Below are positions 1 to 64,000 of a stretch of 64,000 bases of DNA, piece after piece. The translations under genes and the position numbers were made by a program. The notes beneath the pieces were generated by a model that made no database searches, had not been told where the DNA came from, and saw only the letters and a program-made list of their open reading frames with translations. This stretch comes from Piromyces finnis finn (taxonomy: Eukaryota > Fungi > Neocallimastigomycota): assembly GCA_002104945.1 (NCBI GenBank), contig MCFH01000015.1:806001-870000 (forward strand), read 5' to 3'. Positions within the stretch are counted from its first letter, which is position 1. The number at the start of each line of letters is the position of its first letter.

Positions 1-400
1 ACTCCTGATACATTTATCATGGTATCATACATAAATGAAATAATTTAAATTATTGTAAATTAGGTTAACGACAAGCTTTATTAAAAATTATATATTCTTA
101 AAAATTTATTATAAACTTTTTGACTTTGTATGAATCTTGTTTGGATTTGCATACTTGTATTCACACAAAGTATTAGTGTTGGTATTAATGTAACTTATCG
201 TAGTTGAATCTAATTGCTCTAGTTTATTCTTAATTATATATATGTCTATTAACACTAAACACTAAATTTTTAATATTTTATTTTCACTACCAGCGTTGTT
301 TAATATTATAATGCTTATTTAATAATTAATTTTTAAAATAATATAACAAATATGTTATTATTAATTAATGATGATGAATTATTAATTGAATAGTTTTTAT

Positions 401-426
401 AATATTAATTTAGCGCTCATCATGCC
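401..426 (-). promoter_or_regulatory. Rolling-circle origin, half 1: stem arm plus TAATATT heptamer up to the nick
   Basis: Minus strand reads GGCATGATGAGCGCTA-AAT-TAATATT|AT. TAATATTAT is the nonanucleotide of SsHADV-1-like genomoviruses. Confidence 0.75.
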
Positions 427-558
427 AGCTTTTGCACTTAGAAACGTGACTTTGGATTAACCTACGCTGATGCACGTGATGTCACAAAAGAAGAATTATA
501 CACGTGTTTACAACTATTAGTTATCGCCGACGCACATGTAGATAAATTAATGGTAGCT
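422..558 (+). pseudogene. rep: CRESS Rep N-terminus (HUH endonuclease motif I), frameshifted and truncated
   Basis: Restoring one T in the run at ~451-453 gives MPAFALRNVTFGLTYADARDVTKEELYTCLQLLVIADAHVDKLMVA. FGLTY matches RCR motif I, and the sequence breaks just before the expected motif II (HxH). Confidence 0.72.
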
Positions 559-1097
559 GATGGGGAATTTCCCACGGCTTTATCATTGGTTACTGTAGCA
601 GAAACCCCTTCAATACTCTGTGTCGGTAAGATTTTACGACCTTGTAAATAAGTACATAAATTATTGAACTTTAAATGACAAACACTATACCAAATAGTTT
701 TTGAGGCTGCACCAGCACCCATCCAAGAAAAACCAAATCTGTTTATATATTTGTTTTTAGTAGGGTTTGTTTTAAACAATTTGCGTAAAAATCGTTGTTC
801 GCGTGGTGTTCTACGTACTATCATACGTGTTGTAGTATGGGTTGTACCGGCAGCGTTTCCTTTAACTGATTCGAATTGTCTATTGCCAATCCTACGATTT
901 CTTCGTACAATCCTATCTCTTGCTCTACGTCCTAAATTTTGGGCCAATTGTCTTGCTTTATTACGCACCATCCTATTTCTCATTGCTCTTCGTAATACGT
1001 TACGTGCTACTACCGGTACTTTCCATAACGCTTGTCTTCCTATTTGTTGAATAGGATAATTTCTCGCTCTTCGTACAACTTGTTGTCGTTATGGCAT
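555..1097 (-). pseudogene. cap: CRESS capsid 5' half (Arg-rich arm), nonsense at codon 3, truncated
   Basis: MP*RQQVVRRARNYPIQQIGRQALWKVPVVARNVLRRAMRNRMVRNKAR... It matches 60716-61171, with 2 aa differences in the 143 codons from MRNRM to NSPSA. Confidence 0.85.
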
Positions 1098-1137
1098 TTT
1101 GATTGGTCAATCAAGTACATTCGTACATTATACGGAC

Positions 1138-1189
1138 ATTTATAGTAATTCCGCAAATTAAAGTTTAATTTAAAAAATTAATATAAATA
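1138..1189. promoter_or_regulatory. Divergent TATA boxes of the viral long intergenic region
   Basis: TATAAAT on minus (1144-1138) lies ~40 nt before the cap ATG (1097). TATAAATA on plus (1182-1189) points across the origin to the rep ATG (422) in the reconstructed circle. Confidence 0.45.
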
Positions 1190-1195
1190 GAGACT

Positions 1196-1220
1196 GGCAG
1201 GCAGGCATGGAGCGCTATAT
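1196..1220 (-). promoter_or_regulatory. Rolling-circle origin, half 2: post-nick AT, stem arm and GGCA x3 iteron-like repeats
   Basis: Minus strand starts ATA-TAGCGCTCCATGCC. Plus strand has GGCAGGCAGGCA at 1196-1207. Confidence 0.65.
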
Positions 1221-20479: not shown

Positions 20480-21220
20480 ATGTGTTTTTTCTGATATCAG
20501 ATAAACCACATAAAAAGTCAATTTCAACAGAACGTCATGGTCTATTAGGAATTTCTAAAGGTTGTAAAAGACCATATTTTTTGTGTTTATTGAATTTGTT
20601 TCAATTACAAATTTCACAAGAATTAAAAAATTTAGTTATATCTTTATGAATTTTTGGCCACCAATAATTTCTATTAATTAATTCTTCAGTTCTCTTAACA
20701 TCCAAATGGACTGCATCTGAATTCTCATAATATCTCATCTCATAAGGACTTCTAATCTAATATATTGATTTGGAATTTTACCATCTAAAGTATAAAGTAA
20801 ATTACAGTGGTCTGTAAAAACTGTTACCTTAAACTTAGCTCTTAAAAGAAGATGACATCAGACTGAAAAAGCAGATTTAATAGAAAGAAGTTCTTTACCC
20901 ATGATGGAGTAATTTCTTTTAGTATCATTTATACTTCTAGAAAAATAAGCAACAGGATTTAATTTTTTATCTTCATCATATTGAGATAAAATAGAACCTA
21001 CTGCAAAATTATTGACGTCACTCCTGTTGTTACATTAAGAGGCCTATTAGAATCAGGAAAAGCTAAAACGAGAGAAGTAATCATCATTGTATGCATTACG
21101 CAAATCTAGTAGAATATGGAATTTATAACAAAAACATCATCACATATCTAATTTAACATTTTTCCTAGTTAAATTATGTAGAGGTTTGGCAATTTTTGCA
21201 AAGTTATTAATAAATCTTCT
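20480..21220 (-). pseudogene. Decayed Gypsy RT-end/RNase H/integrase fragments
   Basis: GLLQPLEIPNRPW, WWPKIHKDI, PVAYFSR and NFAVGSILSQ remnants on the minus strand. Confidence 0.7.
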
Positions 21221-34183: not shown

Positions 34184-34200
34184 GCCCGGATTCTCCACCA
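34184..34200 (-). promoter_or_regulatory. Primer binding site, probably tRNA-Ala
   Basis: Minus strand TGGTGGAGAATCCGGGC is complementary to a tRNA 3' end ...GCCCGGATTCTCC-A-CCA with U70 and A73, the Ala identity elements. Confidence 0.7.
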
Positions 34201-34207
34201 AATTTTA

Positions 34208-41657: not shown

Positions 41658-42081
41658 TGATACGAAGAGGATATTATCTTAATTCTATATTTTACTATAG
41701 AAAGTGATAATATCTGTATCTAAAAATTTATAAATAAAAATAAGGAAAATAAAAATAGAATAAATGATTTTTATACTTGTTCATTTGCAAGTATTAGTTA
41801 ATTTTTAAAAATATAAAGTTTATTTAATTATAAAATTATCATTATTTAATAACTCTAGTATTATTAAATAAAAAAAATGTATGTTTTATATTCTAATTTT
41901 CAGGGATTATTAGTAACCCTTTTAAAAATAAGTTTTATTATAAAATCATTTTTGAATTTAATATTTAAAAGTATATATATCTAATTTTTCGCTCTGGATT
42001 ATTAGGAACATCTTTTAAAATAAAGTAATTCTATCACTATTTATACAAAATTATTATTTTAAAGTATAATTATAAACAAAT

Positions 42082-42808
42082 TGTAAAAGTTTTATAAATG
42101 TAAAACAGATTATAAAATTTTTTACAATAAAACAACAACACAAAATAAAGAAAAAACAAGAAAATAAATTATATTTAAAAAAATATCTCTTTTATTAATT
42201 TTATTTAGTTATTAACTAAATAATAGTCAATAACAATTACATCGTTTTAATCAAGAAATTTTACATGCATTTATATTTTTCGTAAATTATATTTTAATAT
42301 ACTATTCTATTTAATTATACATATATTCAATATAAAATAAACAAAACTAATTTAATACTAATTTAATTAAATAATAAAATAATAAAACTAAACTAAAACT
42401 AATTAAATACACTTTTGATTCAATTTGAGTAAACTGCAAATTGAATACAGTCCATGTATTACCTATATATTAATTAAATATTAATAATACTATTTATTAT
42501 ATATTTATAATTAAAAATGCTAATTTAAAACTACGCTAAAGTTATTAAACTAATTTTAATTAAATAAAAACTTTTTAAGATTTAATTTGAATATTTAAAA
42601 TATTTAAATTTAATTATCCATTAATTTAAATATTTATCCAAATTTCATTTCTAACTTTGATATTTTAAAATTAATATTTATTTAATTATTCCATAAAATT
42701 TATACAATAAATTTTATAAACAATTTTTTCATTAAAATATCAAAATTATTATTCAATAATTATTAATTAATTATTAAATAATTTAAAGATATACTTTATA
42801 TCTTTACA
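42082..42808 (-). repeat. 3' LTR (727 bp)
   Basis: TGTAAAAG...CTTTACA, matching 48236-48962. Confidence 0.95.
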
Positions 42809-42839
42809 ATCTCGCCCTTTAAGTCGAGCTCCTGCGAGA

Positions 42840-45800: not shown

Positions 45801-47651
45801 TGGAGGTAAAATATTACAATTCTTTTCATTAAAAACCTCTTTAAATAATAAATATTGTTTTGGAATTTCAATAGATTTTTTATCTTTATTCAAATTATCA
45901 CTTTCACTTTTACATTTATTAATAATATTACAAAATAAATCATAACAGTTACTAACTGAATTTAATACACGAGAATTATTATTATTACACACGTTTTTTG
46001 AAAATGAGTACTGTTTTGGTCCAGTGACCGAATTATTATCTTTATTTAAATTTTCATCAATACAATTAATGCTATTACATATACATTTAAAATTACAATT
46101 ATTATCATTATTTAAACTATTACTAAATTTAATTTTATTAAAACTATCTAGGTTACTAATGGTTTTGACGGAGGTTCTACGGCCTCTAATACTTAATGTT
46201 TCTTCATCATCACTGGAGTCGCTATAAGAGTATTCATAATGATTGTATGAACCAAGTTCACTATAAGAGGATTGATCATCTTCATCATCTTGAATAACTT
46301 CTTTTCCTTTTCTTGATGATATTTTTTCTTTCTTGGTTTCCTTTGTGCTACTCTTGTTCTTTCTTCTTCCCACATTACAATGTCTGGCACAGTATGTAGA
46401 GTTAAATGCAATTTTGGAAGAATCGTGGTAGTAAACAGGGCAATGTTTATCAATCCAAGGTACACCAAGAATTATATCAACTTCAGGAATTCTAAGTGCA
46501 TATAATTGAATGACTTCGTAATGATTTCTCAAACGAAGGATGCACTTTTCGGATTCCTTTTTCACGGTAGATGTACCTTGCCCTAAACCAGAAACCTTGA
46601 AAGATTCAGCAATATTTGAAAGTTTAATATTATTGATTCGGGCGAACTCGGGGTGGATGAAATTAAGATCGGAACCAGAATCAATAAGTACCTTAGCTTT
46701 GACTTCATCAATATCATTGGTTTTGATATAAAAATCAATAATATTTTTCTTTTCACCTTTATGAATTTCGAATATGTTTGAAGTTCCCTTGGAATTAAGA
46801 TTATCCTTTTTAATTTTCTTGATTGAAGGGCTAGCTTCGTCTTCTGAATAGCATCTCTTGATAATTTTTACATTTTTTGGTTTCTTTTTGTTTGGACAAT
46901 TGAATTGAAAGTGTCCAGACTTTCCACAAGTAAAGCAAACTCCATTCTTCTTAGCCTCAGTGCGATTTATTTTATTTTCGTCATAATTACTTCTATGAGG
47001 AGGGAAGTAATTAACCTTTCTTTGACCTAAACTGATCCTATATAAATCCACATCCATAGGATCATTTTGGTTATAATTTCTTCGGTCTTGATGCGTCATG
47101 TAATATTCACTGATATCATTTCTCTTAGTAAGATTTTCAATACTAAGGACATCAGAATAAAGACGCTCTAATTGAGAGGGATTTGGATTCACTACAGCTA
47201 AATGTTCACGCATTTTCGGATGTAATCCCTTTGTGAACATGTATATTTTAGCTGCTTCATTAAAATTCGAATTTTGGCTAACGCGTTGGAATTCGTTAAT
47301 GTATTCGAACACCTTGCCAAATTTTCTTTGTTTAATGTTGCAAAGTCTTCCATTTGCAACAATCGTATCATTATTCGGATCCCCGAAATTGGTACGAAGA
47401 GCAGCAATAAACCGATCATAGTTTCTTAGAACGGCGTCGTTATTTTGTCTTAAACGAGCGGCCCATTCTAAAGGTCTATTGACAAAGTAAGATATTAAGA
47501 ATCGAACTCTTGCCTCATCATTAACAAATCTATCAGGGTTGGCTTCAATGGCTAGTTCAACCCTGGTCAAGAACCCATCTAGTTCTTGTCTTCTTCCTGA
47601 AAAGGTTGGAGGATCATTAACTATCCTCAAAGACGCCCCTTGACGGTCCAT
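42840..47651 (-). CDS. gag-pol: Gag-Pol polyprotein: Gag, CCHC, protease, RT, RNase H, integrase, chromodomain
   Basis: First ATG at 47651 (the track's 47699 start is TTG). Motifs CFTCGKSGHFQFNC, LIDSGS, YIDD, TDAS/ELLA/TDH, H..H..C..C, MDF/SDRG/QTERVN, GPF, and C-terminal SFLMTWK..NTWIPE. Confidence 0.96.
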   Translation of the reverse strand: MDRQGASLRIVNDPPTFSGRRQELDGFLTRVELAIEANPDRFVNDEARVRFLISYFVNRPLEWAARLRQNNDAVLRNYDRFIAALRTNFGDPNNDTIVANGRLCNIKQRKFGKVFEYINEFQRVSQNSNFNEAAKIYMFTKGLHPKMREHLAVVNPNPSQLERLYSDVLSIENLTKRNDISEYYMTHQDRRNYNQNDPMDVDLYRISLGQRKVNYFPPHRSNYDENKINRTEAKKNGVCFTCGKSGHFQFNCPNKKKPKNVKIIKRCYSEDEASPSIKKIKKDNLNSKGTSNIFEIHKGEKKNIIDFYIKTNDIDEVKAKVLIDSGSDLNFIHPEFARINNIKLSNIAESFKVSGLGQGTSTVKKESEKCILRLRNHYEVIQLYALRIPEVDIILGVPWIDKHCPVYYHDSSKIAFNSTYCARHCNVGRRKNKSSTKETKKEKISSRKGKEVIQDDEDDQSSYSELGSYNHYEYSYSDSSDDEETLSIRGRRTSVKTISNLDSFNKIKFSNSLNNDNNCNFKCICNSINCIDENLNKDNNSVTGPKQYSFSKNVCNNNNSRVLNSVSNCYDLFCNIINKCKSESDNLNKDKKSIEIPKQYLLFKEVFNEKNCNILPPHREYDCEIRLKDNANLFYGPLYPLTEAERDELKNYINENLEKGFIRKSSSPAGAPVLFVKKKDGSLRLCVDYRKLNDMTIRNSYPLPLIGDLLDRVKGAKYFTKLDLKSAYNLVRIKEGDEYKTAFRTRYGHFEYLVMPFGLKNAPATFQHFINDVLSDYLDDFAISYIDDILIYSNSLEEHHEHVKKVLKKLLENNLYVKLEKCEFDVSETTFLGYVLSKDGLKMDRDKVKAILDWPVPTNVKEVQSFIGLCNYYRIFIKDFAKIASPLHKLTRKNVPFNWVSECQNAFVTLKKAFTSAPILMNPDSNKPFIVETDASNFAVGAILSQEFEGQLHPIAFISSSLTKSQRNYQIYDKELLAIKVALEEWRHYLEGAKHQFIIYTDHKNLTFPRKPEMLSQRQIRWYEFLSRFDFKLIYRAGKKSGKPDLLSRRSDHICNIYNNDRINENIECSNFSCNFISCNVINSFNKDDSLINSILCSLKNDDLYNKVCVFLNDKNSSSPPIRNINKVKIDKEGFLLYDNLIYVPSSLRTRVLELHHDSISAGHFGVNKTIELISRNFWWPKFSYDVKKFIKSCETCCKAKVPRHKPYGLLSPLSTPNRAWSELSMDFIVELPKSKDMTTIMVIVDRLTKMAHFIPLRCLPTASIAADVFVNNIFKLHGFPDSIISDRGTQFTSDFWNRLCNLLNIKLAFSTANHPETDGQTERVNGILEQYLRCFINEKQNNWVDLLPFAEFAYNNTLQQSINQSPFFANYGFNPKFNPEIPSANRPNRAEQRILDINENIKFLKVNLDQAKETYKKYADQKRMESPDFEVGKKVWLLKGINPSNKNIKRELADQMLGPFEIIKKVSPLAFELKLPNNLRCHPVFHVSLLEPYNENEFVNRSVMNKRKNVKLTTDTIDRIPDKIIQERNYHGKKSFLMTWKNLDENTWIPEDQITDVQLIQEFYRKNKKSRKESQDQVYTRNNNGMIKHRYQPFVIDIPSKK

Positions 47652-47869
47652 ATTTTCGTTTAAGTGGAGGTTAGATAAGAGTTGGTTGATTTCCTCCAAT
47701 ATGCTTAATATTTTACTTATTTAATTTTTTACAATATTTTAATTAAGATGTCGTCGTAACTCTATCCTATCAAACGGTGTTAGACGAGCTCTTAAAAATA
47801 TAGTAACAAAATTAAATACAGTAACCAAATAGTGTTGGAAGCTTGAATGATACTAAAATAATAATCTAA

Positions 47870-48149
47870 ACGCGGTAGATATTTCCTAAGACACGGTAGA
47901 TCGCCTTTAAAACACAGTAGATATTCCTTTAGACGCGGTAGATATTTCCTAAGACACGGTAGATCGCCTTTAAAACACAGTAGATATTCCTTTAGACGCG
48001 GTAGATATTTCCTAAGACACGGTAGATCGCCTTTAAAACACAGTAGATATTCTTTTAGACGAGGTAGATATTTCCTAAGACACGGTAGATCGCCTTTAAA
48101 ACACAGTAGATATTCTTTTAGACGAGGTAGATATTTCCTAAGACACGGT
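47870..48149. repeat. 63-bp tandem repeat x~4.4, each made of three 21-bp subunits, in the 5' UTR
   Basis: Units start at ~47870, 47933, 47996, 48059 and 48122. Subunits share the core AC(G/A)(C/G)(G/A)GTAGAT. Confidence 0.92.
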
Positions 48150-48224
48150 AAGTAAGAAAAAAAATATTAAATATGTTTTATTAAAAAAAAAAAAATTTTA
48201 TAACGTGTTTTATAAAAAAAAAAG

Positions 48225-48235
48225 GTAATTGTTAT
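48225..48235 (-). promoter_or_regulatory. Self-priming PBS (ATAACAATTAC)
   Basis: Abuts the 5' LTR, has no TGG, and is perfectly complementary to the LTR sequence at 48384-48394. Confidence 0.85.
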
Positions 48236-48962
48236 TGTAAAAGTTTTATAAATGTAAAACAGATTATAAAATTTTTTACAATAAAACAACAACACAAAAT
48301 AAAGAAAAAACAAGAAAATAAATTATATTTAAAAAAATATCTCTTTTATTAATTTTATTTAGTTATTAACTAAATAATAGTCAATAACAATTACATCGTT
48401 TTAATCAAGAAATTTTACATGCATTTATATTTTTCGTAAATTATATTTTAATATACTATTCTATTTAATTATACATATATTCAATATAAAATAAACAAAA
48501 CTAATTTAATACTAATTTAATTAAATAATAAAATAATAAAACTAAACTAAAACTAATTAAATACACTTTTGATTCAATTTGAGTAAACTGCAAATTGAAT
48601 ACAGTCCATGTATTACCTATATATTAATTAAATATTAATAATACTATTTATTATATATTTATAATTAAAAATGCTAATTTAAAACTACGCTAAAGTTATT
48701 AAACTAATTTTAATTAAATAAAAACTTTTTAAGATTTAATTTGAATATTTAAAATATTTAAATTTAATTATCCATTAATTTAAATATTTATCCAAATTTC
48801 ATTTCTAACTTTGATATTTTAAAATTAATATTTATTTAATTATTCCATAAAATTTATACAATAAATTTTATAAACAATTTTTTCATTAAAATATCAAAAT
48901 TATTATTCAATAATTATTAATTAATTATTAAATAATTTAAAGATATACTTTATATCTTTACA
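48236..48962 (-). repeat. 5' LTR (727 bp)
   Basis: Matches 42082-42808. Confidence 0.95.
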
Positions 48963-52233: not shown

Positions 52234-52826
52234 TGTCACAATAACATATATAAAAATTTAAAAAATTTGGACACATGAAAAAAATTAAAAATTTTTTTAA
52301 AATTTGAAAATTTGAAAATTTGAAAAAATTTCAAATTATAAAATTTCTAATATTCGAAATTATTAAATTTTTTTTAATAATTATTAAAATTTTATTATAA
52401 AAAATTTTTATTTTTAAATTTATTAACTATTTACAATAATTATTAATTATTAATTTATAAAAATTAAATATTTTATAATTAGATAATAATTAATTAAAAT
52501 TAAAAAATGTAATAATTAAAATTGTTCATGTATAAAAAGAACAAAAATTGACAAAAATTACGAAGTTTTAGCATTAGTAATTTTTAACTTAAAGTTAATA
52601 AAATTTATAAACTCCTATAAAACCTAAAACTTTAAAAATTTTAATATTTTTAATAACTTAATATATGCTGATATTAAGTTATTGCTAAAATAAAAATATT
52701 ATTTAATTTTCTTTATATAAATATTATTAGCTTTACGCCTTCAATAGGAAAGCGTATTATATTTGTTAATTAATATAACTAGTGTGCTTACCACACTTTT
52801 CTTTAATAAAAAATCGCTTTTTGACA
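52234..52826 (+). repeat. 5' LTR (593 bp) of the dual-RT element
   Basis: TGTCACA...TTTGACA, lies 81 nt before the gag ATG, followed by a self-priming PBS. Three other copies are in the window. Confidence 0.88.
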
Positions 52827-52837
52827 TTACTAACGCT
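52827..52837 (+). promoter_or_regulatory. Self-priming PBS (TTACTAACGCT)
   Basis: Abuts the LTR. Complementary to LTR 52570-52580 with 1 mismatch in this copy and perfectly in the copies at 10466, 35911 and 41284. Confidence 0.8.
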
Positions 52838-52907
52838 TATTATAAAAGTGCGCTAAGCACCAATTAGTTAGTAATTATTAATAACTAAATATAATAATTA
52901 AAGTTTA

Positions 52908-55900
52908 ATGGGAAAATCTCCACTTACACCTATTAAAGTGGATACAAAAGAATTTTTTAACCGCCTACAAACTACCAAGAGAGAACGTTCCCCAGGAAAT
53001 ACTCCCGTAAGAAAATCAAAGATGCCTAATCATTCCGGACAAATTAATGCTTCTACGAGTAATCCTACTCAGAAGCCAACTACTAATGAGGATCTCAAGG
53101 CCCTCATTGAGTCTTTAACTGCTACCTTAACTGGGAATATCAATCAGTTAAAGGTTGATATTCAAGCTACCAGAAGGGAAAACGAAAGTCTCAATGATCG
53201 TTTGACTGTTTTGGAAAACTCTACTCAAGTTATTATGGGTAAGATGGCTACTTTAGAAGTCAACGATGCTAGGAAAGACAATCAACTCGCTGATATCAAA
53301 GCTCATATCAGCAAAGCTACTCAAAGAGTTGATGAGTTGTCTACTCCCGTTACTCCTTCTACTACTACCCCTCACGAACCTGACGGTGACGTCATCATGG
53401 GAGATGCTTCGCCTCCAAACGTCGCTGAAAAAATGCTTTCTTACTCAGGAGAAAGTATTCAACTACGCAGATTCATCCGTCGATGCGAACACCACTTCTT
53501 AAGACACATCAAGTTCTATGGAAACAATGAAGCTATGAAAGTAAACTTCATTGAAGATTGTCTTACTGGTGATGCTGCAGATTGGTACGTTGTTGAACAA
53601 GCAGACTTCCAGGAATCTCATCCGAATAGAAAAGTTCTTTACGAAGCTTTGAGTAAGAGATTCCTTAACCCGAAGGATATCAACATCACCAAAATCGACC
53701 TGATGAAGCTCAGACATAGTTGGGGAAAAGCTTCCGAATACTTAGGAAAATTCTCCCAATATGTCAAATTAATTGGATGTTCCGAAGACATTCAATTAAC
53801 CATCATGCTTTTCCAAGTTAGACCTACCGTGAACCACGCCTTTAGTAAGTTAACTTCTGATAGACAAACGTTAGAAGAACTGAAGAATCTTCTAATCAAA
53901 TATGATGCTTCCAAGGATACTTATTACGATGATACTTTGGAAAGACAAGCTAACTACAAGGACAAAGAGCCCTTAATAGCTAATTTATTAGGTATTCATG
54001 GCAGTCTTTATTCCAAAAACCCTAACAAGAATAACAATCGTAATAACAACCAAAGGAACAACAATAACAGCAATCGCCCGTCTAACCAAAAAGGAAAAGG
54101 CTCCAGTAACTTGGATAGCAAGTCTAGTACTAAAAATCCCAATAAAAGTACTAAACCTAATAATGGTACTTCATACTCCAGCTATCTCTGTGAAGTAGAA
54201 GAGCAAGATATCTTAGAGCTACCAAATCCTGATCCGGAGAAGTATCCCATCGTGAAGACTAGTGTAAAAACTTCTAAAGGATCTAGACAGGTTATCACTT
54301 CGTCTCTCTTAGATTCTGGCTCTACTACCAATGTAATCCATATGGATTTAGTGAAGAAACTAGGAATTAAGACCATACCAGCTGATACTGTTGTAAAGGT
54401 CATGGGAGGTAATGTCCTAATGCATTACATCACAGAAGAGTTCAACATTGTAATGAACTTATCTTCTTTAGGAAGAACTCGAGAAGAAGTTCGTCAATAC
54501 AAACTTCGATGCCACGTAGCTGATCAGCTTCCTTCTTCGATTCTCCTAGGTTCTAAGTTCATGAAAACCAACTTCTTCTGTATCTTTACACAACCTGACC
54601 ATTCCTTTACAGTTAAAATTGGTCCTGTTCCTTTCTCCAACCATAATGGATCTGAGATTAAATCTCCTAACTTTAGGAATGATTTGAAGAAATCTACACC
54701 TCTTCATGAATTACGCGAAGTCCTCCAAAAGAGACAGTTCGTCTTAGACGAACAATGGGACAAAGAACATTTGAACGATCGAGGAAGAATCGTGATCAAG
54801 AAACAATCAAGCAAGAAACCCAATAATAACCATGTCCACAACACAGAAACGATAACCCTATCCAACGAAGAAAAACTGAAAATCGAACAAAGGCTTCTTA
54901 AACAAAAACAAAACAATCAAAGTTTTATAATCTCAACTGACCATAAAGAAGGACTCGACGAATACATTATCAAGGAAATACAAAACCTCCCTCAAGAATT
55001 ACAAGAATTCAAGCAAGTTTTCGGACCACCACCAAAGGGCAAGATATTTAATAGGAAAAACGAAAATTTAAATTCATACTTACCTTATGATAAGGAAAAA
55101 GTTAAGAGGCTACCCATGATGCCTCACATCAAATTAGACAAAAACCAAGAAGACGCTCTTGAACAAGAATTTCATGAACTTGAACAGAACGGAAAAATCG
55201 AGAGAACTCGATCCAGTTCGGCTTGCAACGTCTTTAATGCACCTAAGAAAGATGGTACATTCAGAACTGTGTTTAATTACGTTATGGTTAATAATTGCCT
55301 ACACCATAACAACTACCCAATACCTAAAATAATCGAACTTGTACACAGAGCTGCCCAGTATAAGTTCCATATTTTACTAGATTTAAGAAATGCCTATAAC
55401 CAAATCTATCTCGAGCCCAAATATCGTTTCCTTACAAGCTTTAGATTTAAAAACCAAACCTATCAATGGAAAGTTCTTCCCTTTGGACTCTCCACTGCCC
55501 CATCCATTTTCCAATCCATTCTCAACCTCTTATTAAAAATATACTTGAATAAAGGTATTGATATCTACCTAGATGATATACATATTTATGCCCAAGATAA
55601 GCAAGAATGCCTCAGACTTTGTGCTTACACTTTAAAGAAGTTCAAAGAAAATAATTTCTTTTGTAAACTTGAAAAATGCTTATTTTTCCCAGAAGAATTC
55701 GAATATTTAGGGTACAAAATTGGATATGAAAAAATACGTCCTATTTCTAATAAAACTTTAGACATTAAAGAATGCAAAACACAAAAGGAATATCAGCAAC
55801 TATATGGCTTTCTTAATTATTTCAAAGACTACGTAAATAACTTTACCGAAAGAACAAAATATATCTCTATGGGACTATCAAATAAAACCACTACTTGGAC

Positions 55901-57923
55901 TAAAGAAATGAATGACGAACTAAATTATTTTAAGAAATTAATTCCTAACCTTCCAAATTTAGCACCGTTTAAACCTAACCACGATATCTTTATCCTAACC
56001 GACGCATCGGAAATCGGAATTGGCGCCGCAATTTTTCAAGCGGGGGCCCCCAATGTACATATTCAAAATTACATTTTAAGTAACGTATACAAGAATAATA
56101 TTAATCGTGAAATCATCGAAAACTTATTTGGTCATAAAAATTGGACATTAAACGGACATTCTGAAGTAAATGGACGTGAAAATAAGAAAATCGATAAAGC
56201 CAAGAATCGTGAAGATATCAATCCACCAATTAAATTGAATGAAGCAATGAATACATTTGAAATAAAAAACAATAGTTTATCCGAATTAAAAAAGTATTTA
56301 AAACCCATAGGCTTTTTCTCCAGAAAATTGAATTCTACAGAAAGAAAATATTCAACATTCGACAGAGAATTATTAGCTCTCTCGGACACCTTACAACACT
56401 ACCGGTTACTTCTCCAACAAGGACAAAAAATATACTGTGCGACGGACCATAAGAATTTGGTAATCTACATAAATTCCGGATCCAAAGTCGAAACTAATCG
56501 TAAGTTAAGATTATTTGAAAATATTTGCAATTACAATATAATACCTTATTATATCGAAGGAAAAGACAACAAGATTGCAGATCTACTCTCAAGATTTATT
56601 AAAATGGAAAACGAAACCGAAAATACTAGCAACAGAAGAAACCCACAGCAGGTCAACAATATTGAAGAAACAAATTCTTTGGATTTCTTAGTAAATGCCA
56701 TTGAACTCAAGGACTTAGAATCTACCAACAAAGAAGAAGATAACGAGGAACCAGACTTAAAAGTCTTTAAGACTACCATAAGTTCGCTAATGGAAAATAA
56801 TAAACAAAAGGAACTAAAAAATTATCTTATCAATTGGTACAAGAACCAGGATATGTTATTCAAATCATTGAAGGAACAAATAGTAAACCTACTAGAAGAA
56901 AACACTTTCTTCGAAAAACAATATAAAAAACAAGTTAATCTCAGATGTCAAGACCTAAAAGATGTATTGGATAAAAGAGAACATTTTAGTTCAGAAATAA
57001 AAAAGGTGAAAGATGAATTACAACTTCTACAAACTGGCAACACCCAAGGAGAAACTAAAAGAAAATTTGATAGACTTAATCAAAAAATAAACGATTTAAG
57101 GTATGACCTCAATCCAAAGGCTGAAAGAATAGAACTCACTAAGAAAGTAAACCATTCGGAAAAACAGATAACTGCCCAATGGAAAGAGATAGAAAACCTC
57201 AAGAAAATAATAGAAAAAATGGATAAAAGGATAACTGCCCTAATCATTGACAACGAAGAAGACTCAAATCTGGATAAATCAACTTCCATTCCAACAGAAA
57301 CAGTCTTCATAGTCGATGATCAGAATCCTGAACTAGTAGAATCTATCAACGGTATACCTTTGGAATATGAAGATTTATATGAAGCCTTCAATGAAGAACG
57401 AGCCGATGAACTTCCTGAACATCGTGTATATGATTGTTCTATTGATTTGAAACCTAATGCTTCATTATTTTATGGGCCAATTTATCCAACTACTCCTACT
57501 GAACGTCAATTTATTAAGGAGTATATTGAAGAAAACTTGAATAAAGGATTCATTAGAAAATCCCGATCTCCTGCTGGACATCCAGTTCTACTCCAAGATA
57601 AGAAGGATGGTAGTCTCAGATTTTGCGTTGACTATCGCAAGCTCAACGACCAAACTATCAAGAATGCCTATCCGCTACCTTTAATCCTATCAGTCTTTGA
57701 ATCAATGAAAGGTGCTAACTATTTCACTAAGTTAGACCTCAAGTCAGCTTATAATTTAATTAGGATTAAAGAAGGTGACGAATACAAGACTGCATTTAGG
57801 ACGGCATTTGGTCACTTTGAGTACTTAGTCATGCCTTTTGGACTAACTAATGCTCCTGCAGTTTTCCAAGCTTTCATTAATGATATCTTTAGTGATCAAA
57901 TTAATAAGTACGTTCAAGTGTAA
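52908..57923 (+). CDS. gag-pol: Polyprotein part 1: Gag, protease, RT1, RNase H1, coiled-coil domain, N-terminal half of RT2
   Basis: Gag (YSGESIQLRRFIRRCEHHF), LLDSGS, RT1 (LLDLRNAYNQI, LPFGLSTAP, YLDD at 55566), RH1 (TDAS, RELLA, TDH, ADLLSR), then a second RT ([37 protein letters not shown]). Confidence 0.92.
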   Translation: MGKSPLTPIKVDTKEFFNRLQTTKRERSPGNTPVRKSKMPNHSGQINASTSNPTQKPTTNEDLKALIESLTATLTGNINQLKVDIQATRRENESLNDRLTVLENSTQVIMGKMATLEVNDARKDNQLADIKAHISKATQRVDELSTPVTPSTTTPHEPDGDVIMGDASPPNVAEKMLSYSGESIQLRRFIRRCEHHFLRHIKFYGNNEAMKVNFIEDCLTGDAADWYVVEQADFQESHPNRKVLYEALSKRFLNPKDINITKIDLMKLRHSWGKASEYLGKFSQYVKLIGCSEDIQLTIMLFQVRPTVNHAFSKLTSDRQTLEELKNLLIKYDASKDTYYDDTLERQANYKDKEPLIANLLGIHGSLYSKNPNKNNNRNNNQRNNNNSNRPSNQKGKGSSNLDSKSSTKNPNKSTKPNNGTSYSSYLCEVEEQDILELPNPDPEKYPIVKTSVKTSKGSRQVITSSLLDSGSTTNVIHMDLVKKLGIKTIPADTVVKVMGGNVLMHYITEEFNIVMNLSSLGRTREEVRQYKLRCHVADQLPSSILLGSKFMKTNFFCIFTQPDHSFTVKIGPVPFSNHNGSEIKSPNFRNDLKKSTPLHELREVLQKRQFVLDEQWDKEHLNDRGRIVIKKQSSKKPNNNHVHNTETITLSNEEKLKIEQRLLKQKQNNQSFIISTDHKEGLDEYIIKEIQNLPQELQEFKQVFGPPPKGKIFNRKNENLNSYLPYDKEKVKRLPMMPHIKLDKNQEDALEQEFHELEQNGKIERTRSSSACNVFNAPKKDGTFRTVFNYVMVNNCLHHNNYPIPKIIELVHRAAQYKFHILLDLRNAYNQIYLEPKYRFLTSFRFKNQTYQWKVLPFGLSTAPSIFQSILNLLLKIYLNKGIDIYLDDIHIYAQDKQECLRLCAYTLKKFKENNFFCKLEKCLFFPEEFEYLGYKIGYEKIRPISNKTLDIKECKTQKEYQQLYGFLNYFKDYVNNFTERTKYISMGLSNKTTTWTKEMNDELNYFKKLIPNLPNLAPFKPNHDIFILTDASEIGIGAAIFQAGAPNVHIQNYILSNVYKNNINREIIENLFGHKNWTLNGHSEVNGRENKKIDKAKNREDINPPIKLNEAMNTFEIKNNSLSELKKYLKPIGFFSRKLNSTERKYSTFDRELLALSDTLQHYRLLLQQGQKIYCATDHKNLVIYINSGSKVETNRKLRLFENICNYNIIPYYIEGKDNKIADLLSRFIKMENETENTSNRRNPQQVNNIEETNSLDFLVNAIELKDLESTNKEEDNEEPDLKVFKTTISSLMENNKQKELKNYLINWYKNQDMLFKSLKEQIVNLLEENTFFEKQYKKQVNLRCQDLKDVLDKREHFSSEIKKVKDELQLLQTGNTQGETKRKFDRLNQKINDLRYDLNPKAERIELTKKVNHSEKQITAQWKEIENLKKIIEKMDKRITALIIDNEEDSNLDKSTSIPTETVFIVDDQNPELVESINGIPLEYEDLYEAFNEERADELPEHRVYDCSIDLKPNASLFYGPIYPTTPTERQFIKEYIEENLNKGFIRKSRSPAGHPVLLQDKKDGSLRFCVDYRKLNDQTIKNAYPLPLILSVFESMKGANYFTKLDLKSAYNLIRIKEGDEYKTAFRTAFGHFEYLVMPFGLTNAPAVFQAFINDIFSDQINKYVQV

Positions 57924-60317
57924 TTGGATGATATCATTATCTACTCCAAGACCCTTGAAGAACATGTTCAACATGTTAGAAATGTTCTTCAATTAATCAT
58001 TGAAAACAACTTAGTTGCGAAACTCAAAAAATGTGAGTTTCACAAAGCTGAAATCGAATTTTTGGGTCACGTAATCAGTAAGGAGGGAATCAAAACTGAT
58101 CCTCACAAAATTGAAGCAGTTAAGAACTGGCCTATCCCCACTACTGTGAAAGAAGTTCAGTCTTTCTTAGGGTTATGCAATTACTACCGTCGCTTTATCT
58201 CTAACTTTTCTAAAATTGCAAAACCATTATACAACTTAACTAAGAAAGGCGTCACTTTCATATGGACAGACGAGTGTAATAGAGCATTTAATCAACTTAA
58301 AGAATTTCTTACTTCAGCTCCAGTTTTACTTTGTCCTGATCACGATAAACCATTCATAGTTGAATGTGACGCAAGTGACTTTGCTATCGGGGGAGTACTT
58401 TCACAAAAAGGTGATGATGGAGACCTGCATCCAGTTTATTACTTTTCTAAAACCCTTCATGATGCAGAACTTAATTACTCTATCACCGAAAAGGAACTCT
58501 TAGCAATTCGTCAAGCTTTTATCGAATGGCGTCACTTACTTCAAGGTGCAAAATATCCTATTACCGTTTATTCAGACCATCGAAACTTGCTTTTTGCTAC
58601 CAAACCGCAACTTCTATCCCAAAGACAAGCTCGTTGGCAAGAATACTTTGCTACTTTTGATTTCAAGATTATCTATCGACCAGAAAAGAAAAATGGTAAA
58701 GCTGATGCTCTCTCTCGTAGATCCGACCATATGCTCACAGTTGGTAAGGATATAAGTGAATCATCCTTACTTAAACCAACTCAATTAGAAGGATTCAACG
58801 AAGATGAATGCTACTTCTCTATGGAAACTAGCTTCATTGACGACATTAAGCAGTGCTACCTTCAAGATGAAACCGCTTGTCAGATTCTTAAGGATCTTGA
58901 AGTTCCAAATAGTGATCATCCTTGGATTCTTCAAGATGGCCTTTTAATAAGAACCAAACATCCGGAGCAAGTATATGTTCCAAGTCAACTAAGACTCTTA
59001 GTTATTAAGCTCAACCATGATGCACCCACTGCCGGTCACTTGGGAGTCGATAAGACTTATGACATTCTTAAACGTAATTTCTATTGGGTTAATATGCGTC
59101 AAGATGTCGAGTCTTATATTCGAAGCTGTAGTGTATGCAAGGCAATGAAAACCGATCACCATGCTCCTTATGGTAATATGATCCGTGTCCCTCTTCCGGA
59201 ACTTCCATGGCAACATCTACAAATGGACTTTATCACGGACTTACCATCAAGACCTTGTAACTCTACCTTACCATTCGACTCTACCAATCCGAACCACTAT
59301 CAAGGTACCATAATGGTTACTACTTGCTACTTAACTAAGATGATACACTTAGTTGGGTTCAAACATTTATCCACTGCTAAGGAAACTGCTACTGCTTTTC
59401 TTAACCATATTTTCAAACTGCACGGATTCCCCTTATCTATTGTTACAGACCGTGGTACTCAGTTCGAAAGTCGTCTTTGGTTCCACTTGATGGAATTCTT
59501 TAATATCGATCACCACTCTGCTACTACTGGCCATCACCGCACTGTTGGACAAGTAGAACGTAACAACGACTACGTCGAAACTTATCTTCGTTGCTACTTA
59601 GCTCAATTTGATGATCTCAGTTGGATGGATCATTTGTACTTAGCTGAATTTTGCTACAACAATTCCATCCATGCTTCCACCAAGCAACCACCATTTCTCT
59701 CCGTCTATAATTATCAAGTTCACGCAAACCCACAAATTGCAGACCTTGTTTCTTCTTTAGGACTTCATCCCCTCATCGATAGCTTCTCCCATAACTTAGC
59801 TGACCTTAAGCATACTCTCGAAGTCAGTCGTACCCGTTATCTCGATGAAAAGGATAAGCACCTTTATCACAACTTTAAGCGCTTCAAGGTCCACGATCTT
59901 GTTTGGCTTCGCAAACCCGCTAATTATCATCCTCCATTAGCGTTCAAGCTCCAAACCCGCAAGTATGGTCCATACAAGGTCACTGGTGTCGATGAATCTA
60001 AGCTCAACTACCGCCTTGATTTATCTACCTCACCTTTCCCTCGTGTCTACCCCGTATTCCACATCAGTGAACTCGAACCATATCATCCCACTCCTCACCA
60101 TCTATTGCTCAACCATCCCAACTCCAATGAAATCACCAAGATCCTTAGTTCTCGTAAATCGGGTCATTTTTACGAGTACTTAGTCACTTTTACTGACTTA
60201 TCTCAACGTTGGATCAATGCTGACACCATTGATAAGGATGACTACTACAGCACCCTTTTAGCTGATTACCAACGTCGCGCTTACCAACAATTCACCAATT
60301 CCGTCCCAGATTCTTAA
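57924..60317 (+). CDS. pol: Polyprotein part 2 (same frame, after TAA): rest of RT2, RNase H2, integrase, chromodomain
   Basis: LDD, CDASD/KELLA/SDH/ADALSR, HDAPTAGH..CSVC, MDF/TDRG/QVERNN, GPYKV, EITKILSSR..YEYLVTF..RW. Confidence 0.9.
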   Translation: MDDIIIYSKTLEEHVQHVRNVLQLIIENNLVAKLKKCEFHKAEIEFLGHVISKEGIKTDPHKIEAVKNWPIPTTVKEVQSFLGLCNYYRRFISNFSKIAKPLYNLTKKGVTFIWTDECNRAFNQLKEFLTSAPVLLCPDHDKPFIVECDASDFAIGGVLSQKGDDGDLHPVYYFSKTLHDAELNYSITEKELLAIRQAFIEWRHLLQGAKYPITVYSDHRNLLFATKPQLLSQRQARWQEYFATFDFKIIYRPEKKNGKADALSRRSDHMLTVGKDISESSLLKPTQLEGFNEDECYFSMETSFIDDIKQCYLQDETACQILKDLEVPNSDHPWILQDGLLIRTKHPEQVYVPSQLRLLVIKLNHDAPTAGHLGVDKTYDILKRNFYWVNMRQDVESYIRSCSVCKAMKTDHHAPYGNMIRVPLPELPWQHLQMDFITDLPSRPCNSTLPFDSTNPNHYQGTIMVTTCYLTKMIHLVGFKHLSTAKETATAFLNHIFKLHGFPLSIVTDRGTQFESRLWFHLMEFFNIDHHSATTGHHRTVGQVERNNDYVETYLRCYLAQFDDLSWMDHLYLAEFCYNNSIHASTKQPPFLSVYNYQVHANPQIADLVSSLGLHPLIDSFSHNLADLKHTLEVSRTRYLDEKDKHLYHNFKRFKVHDLVWLRKPANYHPPLAFKLQTRKYGPYKVTGVDESKLNYRLDLSTSPFPRVYPVFHISELEPYHPTPHHLLLNHPNSNEITKILSSRKSGHFYEYLVTFTDLSQRWINADTIDKDDYYSTLLADYQRRAYQQFTNSVPDS

Positions 60318-60742
60318 TCTGGACCCCACTTATTAGTATCCCACCTACTAGTGTCTACCACCCTTACTCCTTCACTACCCACCTATCGCCACTACCCCAC
60401 CTACTACCCACAACTCCGCTACCCACTAGTCGCCACCACTACAACTACCAACCACTATTCCGCTACCCAACCACCCTCTTTCGCCTTTGCCCTCAACCCT
60501 CAAATTCCGCAACCTTTTCCGCATCCCAAAATCCGTATCCCCTCGAGTCATATCATTTCCCTAACCTTCACGTGTAGTCTCCATTTCTGAAGAATCCACG
60601 TGATACCCTCACAACTTTTCTTTGAACACTTTTACACCTCACTTTTTCAACACTTAGAAAAATTTTGAGAATTTTCAAAAAATGGAAATTCTCAATTTTT
60701 GAAAAAAAATCTAAGGTAGCACGTAACGTATTACGAAGAGCA

Positions 60743-61867
60743 ATGAGAAATAGAATGGTGCATAATAAAGCAAGACAATTGGCTCAAAATTTAGGACGTA
60801 GAGCAAGAGATAGGATTGTACGAAGAAATCGTAGGATTGGCAATAGACAATTCGAATCAGTTAAAGGAAATGCTGCTGGTACAACCCATACTACAACACG
60901 TATGATAGTACGTAGAACACCACGCGAACAACGATTTTTACGCAAATTGTTTAAAACAAACCCTACTAAAAACAAATATATAAACAGATTTGGTTTTTCT
61001 TGGATGGGTGCTGGTGCAGCCTCAAAAACTATTTGGTATAGTGTTTGTCATTTAAAGTTCAATAATTTATGTAATTATTTACAAGGTCGTAAAATCTTAC
61101 CGACACAGAGTATAGAAGGAGTTTCTGCTACAGTAACCAATGATAAAGCCGTGGGAAATTCCCCATCAGCTGGTATTTACGTTGGTAAATGTACATTCCA
61201 TTACGAATTGTATAACCCAACTAATTATTTAATGACCGTATACATTTACGATTTAATTTGTAAATGTGATACACCACATCAAATAGCATATTCTGATGCT
61301 AATAATGATGGTAATAGTGCCCCTGAAGCTTGTATGCAAAAGGGTTCAAAATCCATGACCGATGGAGGTTCTGCCCCAACATGGCAAGTTGCAGACCCTA
61401 CACTCGAAATGGGTACATATTGGAATACTGTTGGTATGAAACCAACGGACTATCATTTATTTAATACGATTTGGAAAGTCAAAGGAATGAAAAAAATCAT
61501 TTTACCACCTGGATCATCACACCATCACGTGGTTATATACAACCCAAAAAAGAAGATAACCAATGCTAGTTTATTATACCCTAGAGAAACTAGACATACT
61601 AATAATAAAATGGGTATTGGTGGTATTACACAAGCAACTTTATTTGGTTTTGAAGGTCAAGTTGCAACTGAAGACAATCAACGTAGTGATGGTACAATTG
61701 TAGGTACATTACCTGGTAAATTATTAGTTAAATGTATTAAAAAGGTAAATATATGGGATCTTCCATGTAACTATCAATCAGTAACATCTGAAGATGATTT
61801 AGTAGCAACATGGACTAAACCAACTATATTCTCTGATTTAGTAGAAGTCAATGCAAGCTCTACATAA
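60743..61867 (+). CDS. cap: CRESS virus capsid protein (Arg-rich arm plus probable single jelly-roll), 374 aa from first in-frame ATG
   Basis: Very Arg-rich N-terminus followed by beta-strand-type segments (FHYELYNPTNYLMTVYIYDLIC, IWKVKGMKKIILPPGSSHHHVVIY). Near-identical to the copy next to a Rep and origin at 401-1220, and converges on a Rep remnant. Confidence 0.85.
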   Translation: MRNRMVHNKARQLAQNLGRRARDRIVRRNRRIGNRQFESVKGNAAGTTHTTTRMIVRRTPREQRFLRKLFKTNPTKNKYINRFGFSWMGAGAASKTIWYSVCHLKFNNLCNYLQGRKILPTQSIEGVSATVTNDKAVGNSPSAGIYVGKCTFHYELYNPTNYLMTVYIYDLICKCDTPHQIAYSDANNDGNSAPEACMQKGSKSMTDGGSAPTWQVADPTLEMGTYWNTVGMKPTDYHLFNTIWKVKGMKKIILPPGSSHHHVVIYNPKKKITNASLLYPRETRHTNNKMGIGGITQATLFGFEGQVATEDNQRSDGTIVGTLPGKLLVKCIKKVNIWDLPCNYQSVTSEDDLVATWTKPTIFSDLVEVNASST

Positions 61868-62137
61868 GAACACGTGACATACAACTAAGTTAACGTGTTT
61901 GATCCCTGTGAGCCGCAGGCTCTAGACCCTGGCCGTTGACTATCACATGTTTATATCTCATGGTGATCATGTGATGAGTCACACCCTCCCACTTATCCAT
62001 AGCCAAGTGGTTCTGAGAGGATTGTTTCCTACTCTGGACGGACGGCTCTGGGGGAGTAGGAGGAACAGATTTTTTTATTATTTTTATTTAACACAAAATG
62101 TATACAACACAAATATAATGTAATGTAATGTAAATAT
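61868..62137. other. GC-rich, hairpin-rich viral short intergenic region
   Basis: Stems AACACGT/ACGTGTT, GAGCC-GCA-GGCTC, ATCACATG/CATGTGAT, CCACTT/AAGTGG and TCCTACTC/GAGTAGGA. Confidence 0.6.
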
Positions 62138-62150
62138 AATAAACTTTATT
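62138..62150. terminator. Back-to-back polyadenylation signals AATAAA-C-TTTATT
   Basis: AATAAA on plus (62138-43) for cap. AATAAA on minus (62150-45) overlaps the rep stop. Confidence 0.6.
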
Positions 62151-62290
62151 TAATATAATTTATTTTGTAAAACAATACAAGTACAATTTTTTTTTAAAAA
62201 GTTTAAGTGTTCAATATTTAAATTCTTATATAAATCTTCATTGGATAACCAAATCATTGGTTTTCCCCAATGAACCGTTCTTTTAAAATT
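62150..62290 (-). pseudogene. rep: CRESS Rep C-terminus (SF3 helicase motif C region)
   Basis: FKRTVHWGKPMIWLSNEDLYKNLNIEHLNFLKKNCTCIVLQNKLY* follows the genomovirus/geminivirus pattern K..I.WGKP.IWL.N...WL..NC.F..L..PL(F/Y)*. Confidence 0.8.
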
Positions 62291-62747
62291 AAATTGCCTG
62301 TTCGTTTTAGTAAAAACTAACGGGGGCCTTTTCTTCAATGGTAACTAGATAATATGTAGCTATGGCTATATACTATTTCGGGTATTGGCCTACTTATCTT
62401 AGGAAATCTAAAATACTTAAACCAATGTATATGTAGTATTGACGTTAAAGAGCCTACTTTAAGGAATTTTCACGTAAGTAAAACTCGTTTGTGATTTATG
62501 CGTTTTATATAATAATTTTATTTAATATGTTTTATTATAAGTTTATTTATAAGATCAAAGTTATTTAAAAGTTTGTTGTTTTATTAATTCTTTATCCTCT
62601 GTTGCTATATTGTCGAGGAAGACTATCTTTTTCTAGTGATTAATAATAACTAACAAATACTTTTAAAAGTTATAAAGTTTTATAAATAAATGAATTTTTT
62701 CGAATTAATACGTTTGAGTTTAAAATTTTCGTTACAAATTTTATATT

Positions 62748-62851
62748 ACGAATTTAAATTACGAATTTTAACTACGAATTAAAACTACGAATTTTAACTA
62801 CGAATTAAAACTACGAATTTTAATCACGAATTTTAACCACGAATTTTAAAT
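62748..62851. repeat. 13-bp tandem repeat x8 (ACGAATTTTAACT consensus)
   Basis: Units start at 62748, 62761, 62774, 62787, 62800, 62813, 62826 and 62839. Confidence 0.9.
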
Positions 62852-63013
62852 TAGAAAAAACTAAAGTTTTAAAATAATACATTTAGATGATATTTATACA
62901 TGATTATTAAATTTAGCTATAATATTATTAATAAACTATTACTAATAGAATTTTTAAAGTTATATTAAATATAAATAATTTTAACTAATTAGATTCATTT
63001 TTTGTGTTTAAAG

Positions 63014-64000
63014 TTAGTCAAATGTTTCTTGGTTCTTTTTCATTGGTTCATTTGTTAAATCGATTTCTATTTGAAAGTTCGAAAGTTTTCTTTTCTTAAG
63101 TTCATTACTAATTACGGCTTCGGAAGCGGGGAAGATTTCCTTTAATTCGTTATCAATTATCAAAGCATTGATTCTTTTACTAATACTTTCGATTTTATTT
63201 CTAAGTTCTTCTGTTTCCTTCCATTGGGCAGTTAATTGTTTTTCCGTTTTATTAACCTTTCTAGTAAGTTCGATGCGTTCGGCCTTTGGGTTTAGATCAT
63301 ATCTAAGGTCGTTGATTTTTTGATTTAATTTGTTGAATTTTCTTTTAACTTCTACTTGAGTGTTTCCTGTTTGAAGAAGTTGAATTTCGTCTTTTACCTT
63401 TTTAATTTCTTGATTAAACTGTTCCTTTCTGTCCAAGACTTCTTTTAAGTCTTCGCATCTTAAATTAATCTGCTTTTTATATTGTTTTTCATAATAAGTG
63501 TTTTCTTCTAATAGGTTAATAATTTGTTCTTTCAAGCTTTTGAATAGTTTATCCTGATTTCGATACCATTTGTATAGGTAATCCTTTAATTCTTCTTGTT
63601 TATTGCTTTCGATTAATGAATTGATTGTAACTTTAAAGACTTTGAAGTCGGTGTCTTCTTTCTTTTCATTATTGTTTGATGATTCCTTATCTTTTAATTC
63701 AATTGTGTTGATTATAAAATCTAGTGAGTTCATTTCCTCTATGTTGTTTATCTGTTGTGGATTAGCTATAGTATTATTGTTTACTTCATTACTTTGTTCC
63801 ATTTTGATAAATCTTGATAATAGGTCCGCTATTTTGTTATCTTTTCCTTCTATGTAGCAAGGTATAACATTAAAATTGCAAATATTCTCGAATAGTCGTA
63901 GCTTTCTATTTGTTTCGACTTTGGAACCAGAGTTGATATAGATTACTAGGTTCTTGTGGTCCGTGGCGCAATAGATTTTTTGTCCCTGTTGAAGTAATAA
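63014..64000 (-). CDS. 3' end of a second RT1-type ORF: RNase H C-terminus plus coiled-coil domain, then stop (runs off window)
   Basis: Open from 64000: LLLQQGQKIYCATDHKNL...ADLLSRFIKME, 3 aa differences from RH1 in 66 codons. The coiled coil is homologous to 56600-57255, and the ORF ends ...QETFD* with no RT2 or integrase. Confidence 0.88.
   Translation of the reverse strand, partial: LLLQQGQKIYCATDHKNLVIYINSGSKVETNRKLRLFENICNFNVIPCYIEGKDNKIADLLSRFIKMEQSNEVNNNTIANPQQINNIEEMNSLDFIINTIELKDKESSNNNEKKEDTDFKVFKVTINSLIESNKQEELKDYLYKWYRNQDKLFKSLKEQIINLLEENTYYEKQYKKQINLRCEDLKEVLDRKEQFNQEIKKVKDEIQLLQTGNTQVEVKRKFNKLNQKINDLRYDLNPKAERIELTRKVNKTEKQLTAQWKETEELRNKIESISKRINALIIDNELKEIFPASEAVISNELKKRKLSNFQIEIDLTNEPMKKNQETFD

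Follow-up and report, generated by a model that had tools for sequence, protein, structure and literature searches.

A candidate integrase-less Ty3/Gypsy-type RT-RNase H lineage beside an endogenous CRESS virus fragment

At one end of the 64,000-nt stretch of DNA analyzed here (the window), a Gypsy-type RNase H frame, RT1b, runs to a stop with no integrase behind it and points into a fragment of a CRESS virus. Does this arrangement reflect a retroelement that does without its own integrase, an ordinary element that was broken, or a hybrid of retroelement and virus? An element that loses its integrase but retains a working RT-RNase H takes the step that sets pararetroviruses apart from Ty3/Gypsy elements, as is documented for caulimovirids of plants; if the reading favored below is true, RT1 would add a second case, likely from a gut fungus, and its means of persistence (a borrowed integrase, recombination or episomes) would be testable. 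The window is AT-rich (14-40% GC per 2 kb) and consists of a nest of Gypsy and Copia elements.

The RT1b frame and the DNA behind it

Read from the window edge inwards, the following features were assigned:

63812..64000, minus strand: C-terminal half of the RT1b RNase H, Ty3/Gypsy-type (TDH, ADLLSR); the frame continues past the window edge
63014..63811, minus strand: RT1b tail, 265 aa up to the stop, predicted helical, where integrase normally sits
62290..63013, minus strand: non-coding AT-rich trailer, 724 nt; contains a short tandem repeat and no frame longer than 44 aa
62150..62290, minus strand: C-terminal remnant of a CRESS Rep, from a WGKP motif to the stop; boundary approximate

The RT1b frame (63014-64000, minus strand) comprises 328 aa and is open from the window edge until its stop at 63014, with TDH at aa 13, ADLLSR at aa 58-63 and the 265-aa tail after them. 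RT1b is thus known from the second half of its RNase H and the tail, its RT and upstream part lying beyond 64000, a position that one contig of sample X1 passes by 119 nt. The frame alone gave no Pfam match at E 0.01, and it was identified as RNase H because it is 77% identical over 285 aa to a second copy, the RT1a module (54711-57257), which sits in a polyprotein called RVT_1/RT_RNaseH by Pfam. Across the 62 RNase H codons the identity of the two copies rises to 95% at the amino acid level.

The tail is predicted to be helical, in a low-confidence model (mean pLDDT 51, pTM 0.20) for which a comparison with solved folds gave no match, and near its end it carries what we take to be a basic patch and a SIM-like motif (IEIDL). 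It had no Pfam match above the cut-off, lacked the HHCC motif and scored -9.7 bits on an integrase profile built from 145 post-RNase H regions, with the integrase of the host chromovirus of RT1a as control. From the RT1b stop it is 724 nt to the start of Rep homology (~62290) and 670 nt to the stop-to-stop frame at 62344. The 724-nt trailer scored below 0 bits on the same profile (250 for the control), a tyrosine recombinase ORF was not found in it, and it had only weak AT-rich matches elsewhere within the window. A single 10-nt purine run (62336-62327) occurs in it, with no TG behind, and so a canonical PPT-LTR join was not found in the trailer, which may be cut by the viral fragment. These results agree with the sequence-only reading that preceded this work, which had stated that the RNase H-plus-tail ORF ends at 63014 without an integrase and that the next ~670 nt hold no ORF of 60 aa or more, LTR or PPT.

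An X3 contig crosses the Rep/trailer joint (62217-62395) with zero differences, and an assembly error there is therefore unlikely. Contigs of X2-X4, which we guess to be RNA runs, leave the RT1b frame uncovered and are no evidence either way. A joint of 62155 to 63764 in X1 was disregarded as likely spurious, one of its sides being only 21 nt long. No tRNA was found in the whole window and no Rfam match in 60000-64000.

RT1 copies, relatives and probable position in the RT tree

Two further traces of RT1 lie in the window, each inside another element:

52902..60317, plus strand: host chromovirus copy with gag-like region, protease, the RT1a insert, RT2, RH2, integrase, SH3 and a chromodomain-like end
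54711..57257, plus strand: RT1a, an 849-codon in-frame insert with pre-RT linker, RT, RNase H with a long insertion, and most of the tail
21087..21127, minus strand: third trace of RT1 (41 nt, from RT motif A) in a decayed Gypsy element

RT1a takes the place of 21 nt in the PR-RT linker of its host chromovirus, the gag and protease ahead of it being the chromovirus's own, and in contigs of X1, X3 and X4 position 54710 is followed by 21 different letters and then by 57258. In X1, the depth of this insert-less joint was 3203, compared to ~200 for RT1a, 189 for RT1b and 171 for its trailer; contig depth is a rough guide that should not be taken for copy number, and X1 could itself be the source of the window. 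A variant at 62080 halves an X1 depth of 360, which suggests that 180-200 corresponds to one copy. Since sister contigs skip RT1a at such depth, element 52902-60317 is an ordinary multi-copy chromovirus, one among perhaps 15 copies. The statement of the sequence-only reading that RT1 flanks the viral fragment on both sides is thus literally true and yet misleading, the left piece being an insert that sister chromoviruses skip. The host copy differs from its sister contigs by about 0.5-1.3%, and for this reason the capture of RT1a looks recent; an 849-codon foreign RT-RNase H captured in frame by a young chromovirus would offer a snapshot of module exchange. The long X1 pieces held no close donor copy of RT1a, and both RT1 window copies appear low-copy at 85% likeness. 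P0464, whose cluster includes a Piromyces protein, is a close tree neighbor of the window's chromoviruses, which makes an anaerobic gut fungus the likely host.

The third trace encodes RT1a's residues with 7 differences, all of them synonymous (0/200 shuffles; found after the fact), and lies between the thumb and RNase H of a Gypsy relic, in the relic's orientation. Two other Gypsy elements thus contain RT1 sequence, in each case oriented like the element itself.

A search with RT1a as query scored 7994 candidates and gave 324 matches. Among the best 120 of these, four proteins (P0001, P0002, P0003 and P0010) were set apart at 47-65% identity, the rest reaching 32% at most. When 1.84 billion representatives were searched with a profile, P0002 headed the ranking together with a fifth member, P0323. 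All four proteins of the family with visible ends stop 265-278 residues beyond the last RNase H motif (tails of 265 aa in RT1b, 278 in P0001, 265 in P0003 and 277 in P0010). In these four HHCC was not found and the integrase profile gave 4.2 bits at most, compared to 250 for the host integrase; Pfam, too, found no integrase domain in RT1 proteins. The sequence-only reading had named a normal integrase in other RT1 copies as the finding that would count against it, and none of the four visible ends has one. Because all four stop at this distance, the absence of integrase appears to be a trait of the RT1 lineage and not a chance break. The stops themselves are likely true, since P0001 and P0010 share an end motif and at least five members of the P0003 cluster have the same length. 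The tails fall into three types without mutual alignment that have only length and position in common, and those of P0001 and P0010 are 63% identical and so not independent. None of the 88 matches longer than 1336 aa belonged to RT1, which is weak evidence.

A comparison of RT1a with RT1b shows saturation at synonymous sites (pS 0.84) and a dN of 0.145 (0.04 in RNase H and 0.158 in the tail); as dN is low against such synonymous divergence, the tail is under purifying selection. RT1a, P0001 and P0003 preserve the catalytic YLDD as well as all four acidic motifs of RNase H, P0323 reads YLED, and a family-specific insertion of 80-126 aa in the RNase H is present in all four members that span it. 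Four of the five outside clusters (P0002, P0003, P0010 and P0323) are pieces beginning or ending mid-domain, which resembles decay. The contigs encoding the outside proteins measure 6.6-14.2 kb, long enough to hold an integrase or recombinase gene apart from pol. For the pol frame, then, sequence comparison supports an integrase-less RT1 lineage that recurs outside this genome. The sequence-only reading had proposed a possibly new integrase-less class that relies on partners for integration; its first half holds for the pol frame, and RT1 pieces inside integrase-bearing elements would fit reliance on other integration routes. RT1 loci were not recovered from viral contigs (0/76 and 0/100 pattern matches), metagenome contigs (0/73, then 6/593 at only 24-30% identity, which are not RT1) or prokaryote genomes (0/106, then 1/96 at 31%). 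The literature searched, with most subscription journals outside it, held no description of the RT1 lineage or of an RT-CRESS hybrid.

Phylogenies, which the sequence-only reading had called for, were built as a fast tree from the RT cores of 340 of 369 matching proteins, short matches being dropped, and as a careful tree of 55 rows, with 6 long-branch and 2 near-duplicate rows left out of the random picks. In the latter, RT1 formed a single clade (100/99) on a long stem, sister to P0390 and nested in a branch of chromovirus-type RTs near the integrase-bearing P0420 and P0448. The best score of RT1 against solved structures was 198 bits for Ty3, compared to 103 for PDB 8r0s, which is named once in a CaMV RT paper (PMC11363490); P0300, the only caulimovirid-like row, reached 95 bits. 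An AU test on 27 rows did not reject joining RT1 and P0390 to P0300 (p 0.385), P0300 being a single long row. Taken together, RT1 is probably a long-branch clade among chromovirus-like Gypsy RTs, and the caulimovirid parallel drawn earlier stands as far as an RT-RNase H without integrase goes; as a statement of kinship it is an analogy, the scores favoring Ty3 and the AU test leaving the link unrejected.

RT1 shares with Ty3/Gypsy elements of the chromovirus branch (Ty3 RT: PDB 4ol8, 7q5b) the order of RT followed by Ty3-type RNase H (the RT is seen in RT1a and the outside members), in addition to the structure score and the tree position. It departs from them in its ~270-aa tail in place of integrase, and so in lacking the DDE integrase C-terminal to RNase H that marks Metaviridae, and also in the RNase H insertion, the very long branch and the absence of a visible PPT-LTR downstream of RT1b. 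An RT-RNase H without integrase is a criterion of Caulimoviridae that RT1 shares, but the match is weaker, the host is likely a fungus, and neither movement nor coat protein is seen in the visible RT1 DNA. The RNase H motifs of RT1 are Gypsy-type, in contrast to those of Caulimoviridae.

The neighboring CRESS fragment and a second viral copy

The remaining viral DNA of the window comprises:

61868..62149, no strand: intergenic region of the virus, where cap and rep converge, by nucleotide alignment to L007
60716..61867, plus strand: gemycircularvirus-like capsid gene, 5' end missing
60653..60716, no strand: imperfect palindrome at the chromovirus/capsid joint
399..1217, both strands: second endogenous CRESS copy with Rep start (plus), 5' part of the capsid (minus) and an internal deletion

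The Rep remnant lies on the same strand as RT1b, as had been read from the letters, and matched the Rep of L007 at E 1.2e-6, a score reached by 0/1000 shuffles; Pfam gave no match above the cut-off for either the capsid or the Rep remnants. A capsid scan yielded 0/6 with a single protein and 1/30 with an alignment, the one hit being L007, which is 2734 nt long and has a complete 332-aa Rep, the same layout and no RT. The capsid is predicted to fold as a single jelly roll, with STNV as best match. Convergent Rep and jelly-roll capsid together with an origin nonamer in a stem-loop (nonamer and arms in copy 399-1217) place the viral fragments with the gemycircularvirus-like group, and the capsid comes from an ordinary family of this kind, with genomes of 2.7-2.9 kb and a full Rep. 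It is 53% identical to that of a cattle blood-associated gemycircularvirus (P0204), which also has a convergent layout and a similar intergenic region and Rep end and equals L007 in genome and capsid length, whereas the window holds broken endogenous fragments. A gemycircularvirus has been reported from a Pecoramyces transcriptome, according to the accessible parts of two papers (PMC9501391, PMC10224137). P0132-P0234 are ~100 mostly unnamed CRESS capsids of 410-460 aa with no Pfam match, and gut fungi are likely the hosts of this capsid family, given the endogenous copies in the window.

The second copy is 98% identical over 456 nt to the first and retains a Rep start (0/1000 shuffles). Its origin consists of a nonamer at 407-399 (minus strand) and 8-nt stem arms at 411-418 and 1210-1217, each of which occurs once in the window. 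The copy resembles a circle opened at the origin, which would fit Rep-mediated integration or a captured linear replication intermediate, and its capsid start contains several stops. The palindrome at 60653-60716 reads flipped in contigs of X2-X4, and in these three runs a contig also passes from 60694 into DNA resembling the Rep start (422-450). CRESS DNA may thus adjoin the 3' hairpin of the chromovirus at two or more loci, and the partner that recurs beside CRESS DNA could be this family of chromoviruses, not RT1.

The sequence-only reading had speculated that RT1b and the viral fragment form a hybrid virus in which RT, facing a jelly-roll capsid, had supplanted most of Rep. RT1b and the Rep end do adjoin the capsid in convergent orientation, their joint is found in a second sample, the capsid is a predicted jelly roll, and one capsid relative (P0138) is encoded on a 7.4-kb contig. 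Against this, 98 of the 103 foreign capsid matches lie on contigs of at most 3.4 kb (the other five on 4.4-7.4 kb), the Rep of L007 is complete, the second window copy has a Rep start and an origin, and RT1b ends at its own stop, with the 724-nt spacer before Rep. The X1 depth of the capsid (550-690) exceeds that of RT1b and its trailer (171-189), and other virus copies therefore seem to be without the RT1b join. The suggested search for recurrent linkage of RT1 to cap/rep did not bear the idea out either: within the window, one of three RT1 traces adjoins CRESS DNA and one of two CRESS copies adjoins RT1. The third trace has no CRESS DNA within 19 kb, and between RT1a and the capsid lie 3.4 kb of RT2-RH2-INT-chromodomain and 3' non-coding DNA. 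That two divergent RT1 copies lie less than 6 kb from one CRESS fragment is an unexplained coincidence, and a hybrid virus is scarcely credible to us.

Possible routes of RT1 into chromosomes

If RT1b were an ordinary Gypsy pol that had lost its integrase by local truncation or decay, it would be in fitting company, as broken Gypsy and Copia elements abound in the window; however, the shared stop position in 4/4 proteins and the conservation of the tail between two copies with saturated synonymous sites largely refute this reading, which we hold to be very improbable. RT1 could instead be a domesticated host gene family, a Gypsy RT-RNase H with a helical host-type tail, of which RT1a would be a processed copy captured by the chromovirus. 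The low X1 depth, the intact frames and the strong purifying selection with saturated synonymous sites between copies would suit such a family, but RT1b lies within a transposon nest and abuts viral DNA, the frames of RT1a, RT1b and P0001 are uninterrupted, no RT1-family match has a named genome annotation, several outside members are broken, and the tails are non-homologous across subgroups; domestication thus seems distinctly unlikely.

A more serious contender, though a doubtful one, is that RT1 is autonomous and that its integrating enzyme lies elsewhere, as an integrase upstream of RT or as a separate integrase or tyrosine recombinase ORF, the window holding a truncated end. Gmr1-like Gypsy elements carry their integrase between protease and RT, and DIRS/Ngaro elements have a tyrosine recombinase ORF and inverted or split terminal repeats. 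Like both, RT1 has an RT-RNase H without a downstream integrase in the same frame; unlike both, it has no integrating enzyme in its visible part, the upstream part of RT1b being beyond the window. The 6.6-14.2 kb contigs of RT1 proteins, the position of everything upstream of the RT1b RNase H outside the window and the integrase domains of the nearest full-length rows, P0420 and P0448, would all accommodate such an enzyme. On the other side, the 92 RT1a residues upstream of P0001's start matched neither integrase nor SH3, a protease-like DSG motif lies ~200 aa before RT in the sister P0390 with no integrase between (a weak match, E 0.05), no ORF above 44 aa occurs in the 724 nt past RT1b, and the window copies look low-copy at 85% likeness, which is unlike an active transposon family.

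The reading that we favor, to which we give an even chance, is that RT1 is a distinct, fast-evolving Ty3/Gypsy-type RT-RNase H lineage with a predicted helical tail of ~270 residues in the place of integrase, which would reach chromosomes without an integrase of its own, by cDNA recombination or break repair, often into chromovirus copies, the CRESS fragment being an independent capture. It brings together the observed domain order, conserved stop position, intact catalytic residues, purifying selection and occurrence of RT1 inside two Gypsy elements. RT1 would remain a mobile, reverse-transcribing element, and its tail might serve in oligomerization or nuclear targeting. Its cDNA could be captured when templates are switched in shared particles, or through annealing and repair guided by microhomology. 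Precedents are given in the accessible part of PMC10377300, which describes integrase-independent, Rad52-mediated insertion of Tf1 cDNA, mainly into existing related elements, as well as capture at palindromes and template switching and annealing routes for caulimovirids; in this source and in PMC11363490, as far as each is accessible, chromosomal copies of caulimovirids are thought to be due to break repair or recombination with LTR retrotransposons. The RT1 pieces inside other Gypsy elements resemble the outcome of the Tf1 route, but Tf1 encodes an integrase and uses this route as a backup, whereas for RT1 it would be the main one. The CRESS fragment would likely stem from an ordinary small DNA virus, separately captured at the same breakage-prone spot; it is bounded by the palindrome and by the RT1b trailer, and the palindrome at the chromovirus/capsid joint is a plausible break site.

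An unlikely variant would make RT1 the fungal counterpart of plant pararetroviruses, with an independent origin in the chromovirus branch. Gut fungi would harbor it as a reverse-transcribing episome or infectious agent of 7-12 kb, with a helical tail for integrase and only one-off chromosomal fossils. Such an agent would explain the three diverged low-copy traces, the apparent absence of an RT1a donor and the recurring contigs of 7.2-7.4 and 11.7-12.3 kb.

Several minor observations concern the elements of the window. Chromovirus copy 52902-60317 is a double-RT chimera in which gag-PR-RT1-RH1-tail is fused in frame to RT2-RH2-INT. A stop at 57921-57923, private to this copy and missing from sister contigs, replaces the tyrosine of the RT2 YLDD, and the polyprotein would end there without integrase. 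Over the RT1a RNase H insertion (55868-56609) the X1 depth was 460-860, compared to ~200 for the remaining RT1a; these peaks, which short pieces of other families can cause, were left out of the RT1 copy counts. Upstream of the chromovirus, a TG...CA-bounded repeat (52234-52827) has three further copies in the window, and 3' of its chromodomain (60299-60658) there is no matching 3' LTR or PPT but a C-rich tract that is deep in X3 and X4. Frame 5397-6191 combines an integrase zinc finger with a weak, sub-threshold match to Dam methyltransferase (E 0.003). The Gypsy element at 26929-34970 has LTRs 98.8% identical and a long low-complexity extra ORF (30756-32489) with no Pfam match, and the one at 42080-48962 has LTRs 100% identical and an intact 1626-aa chromovirus polyprotein.
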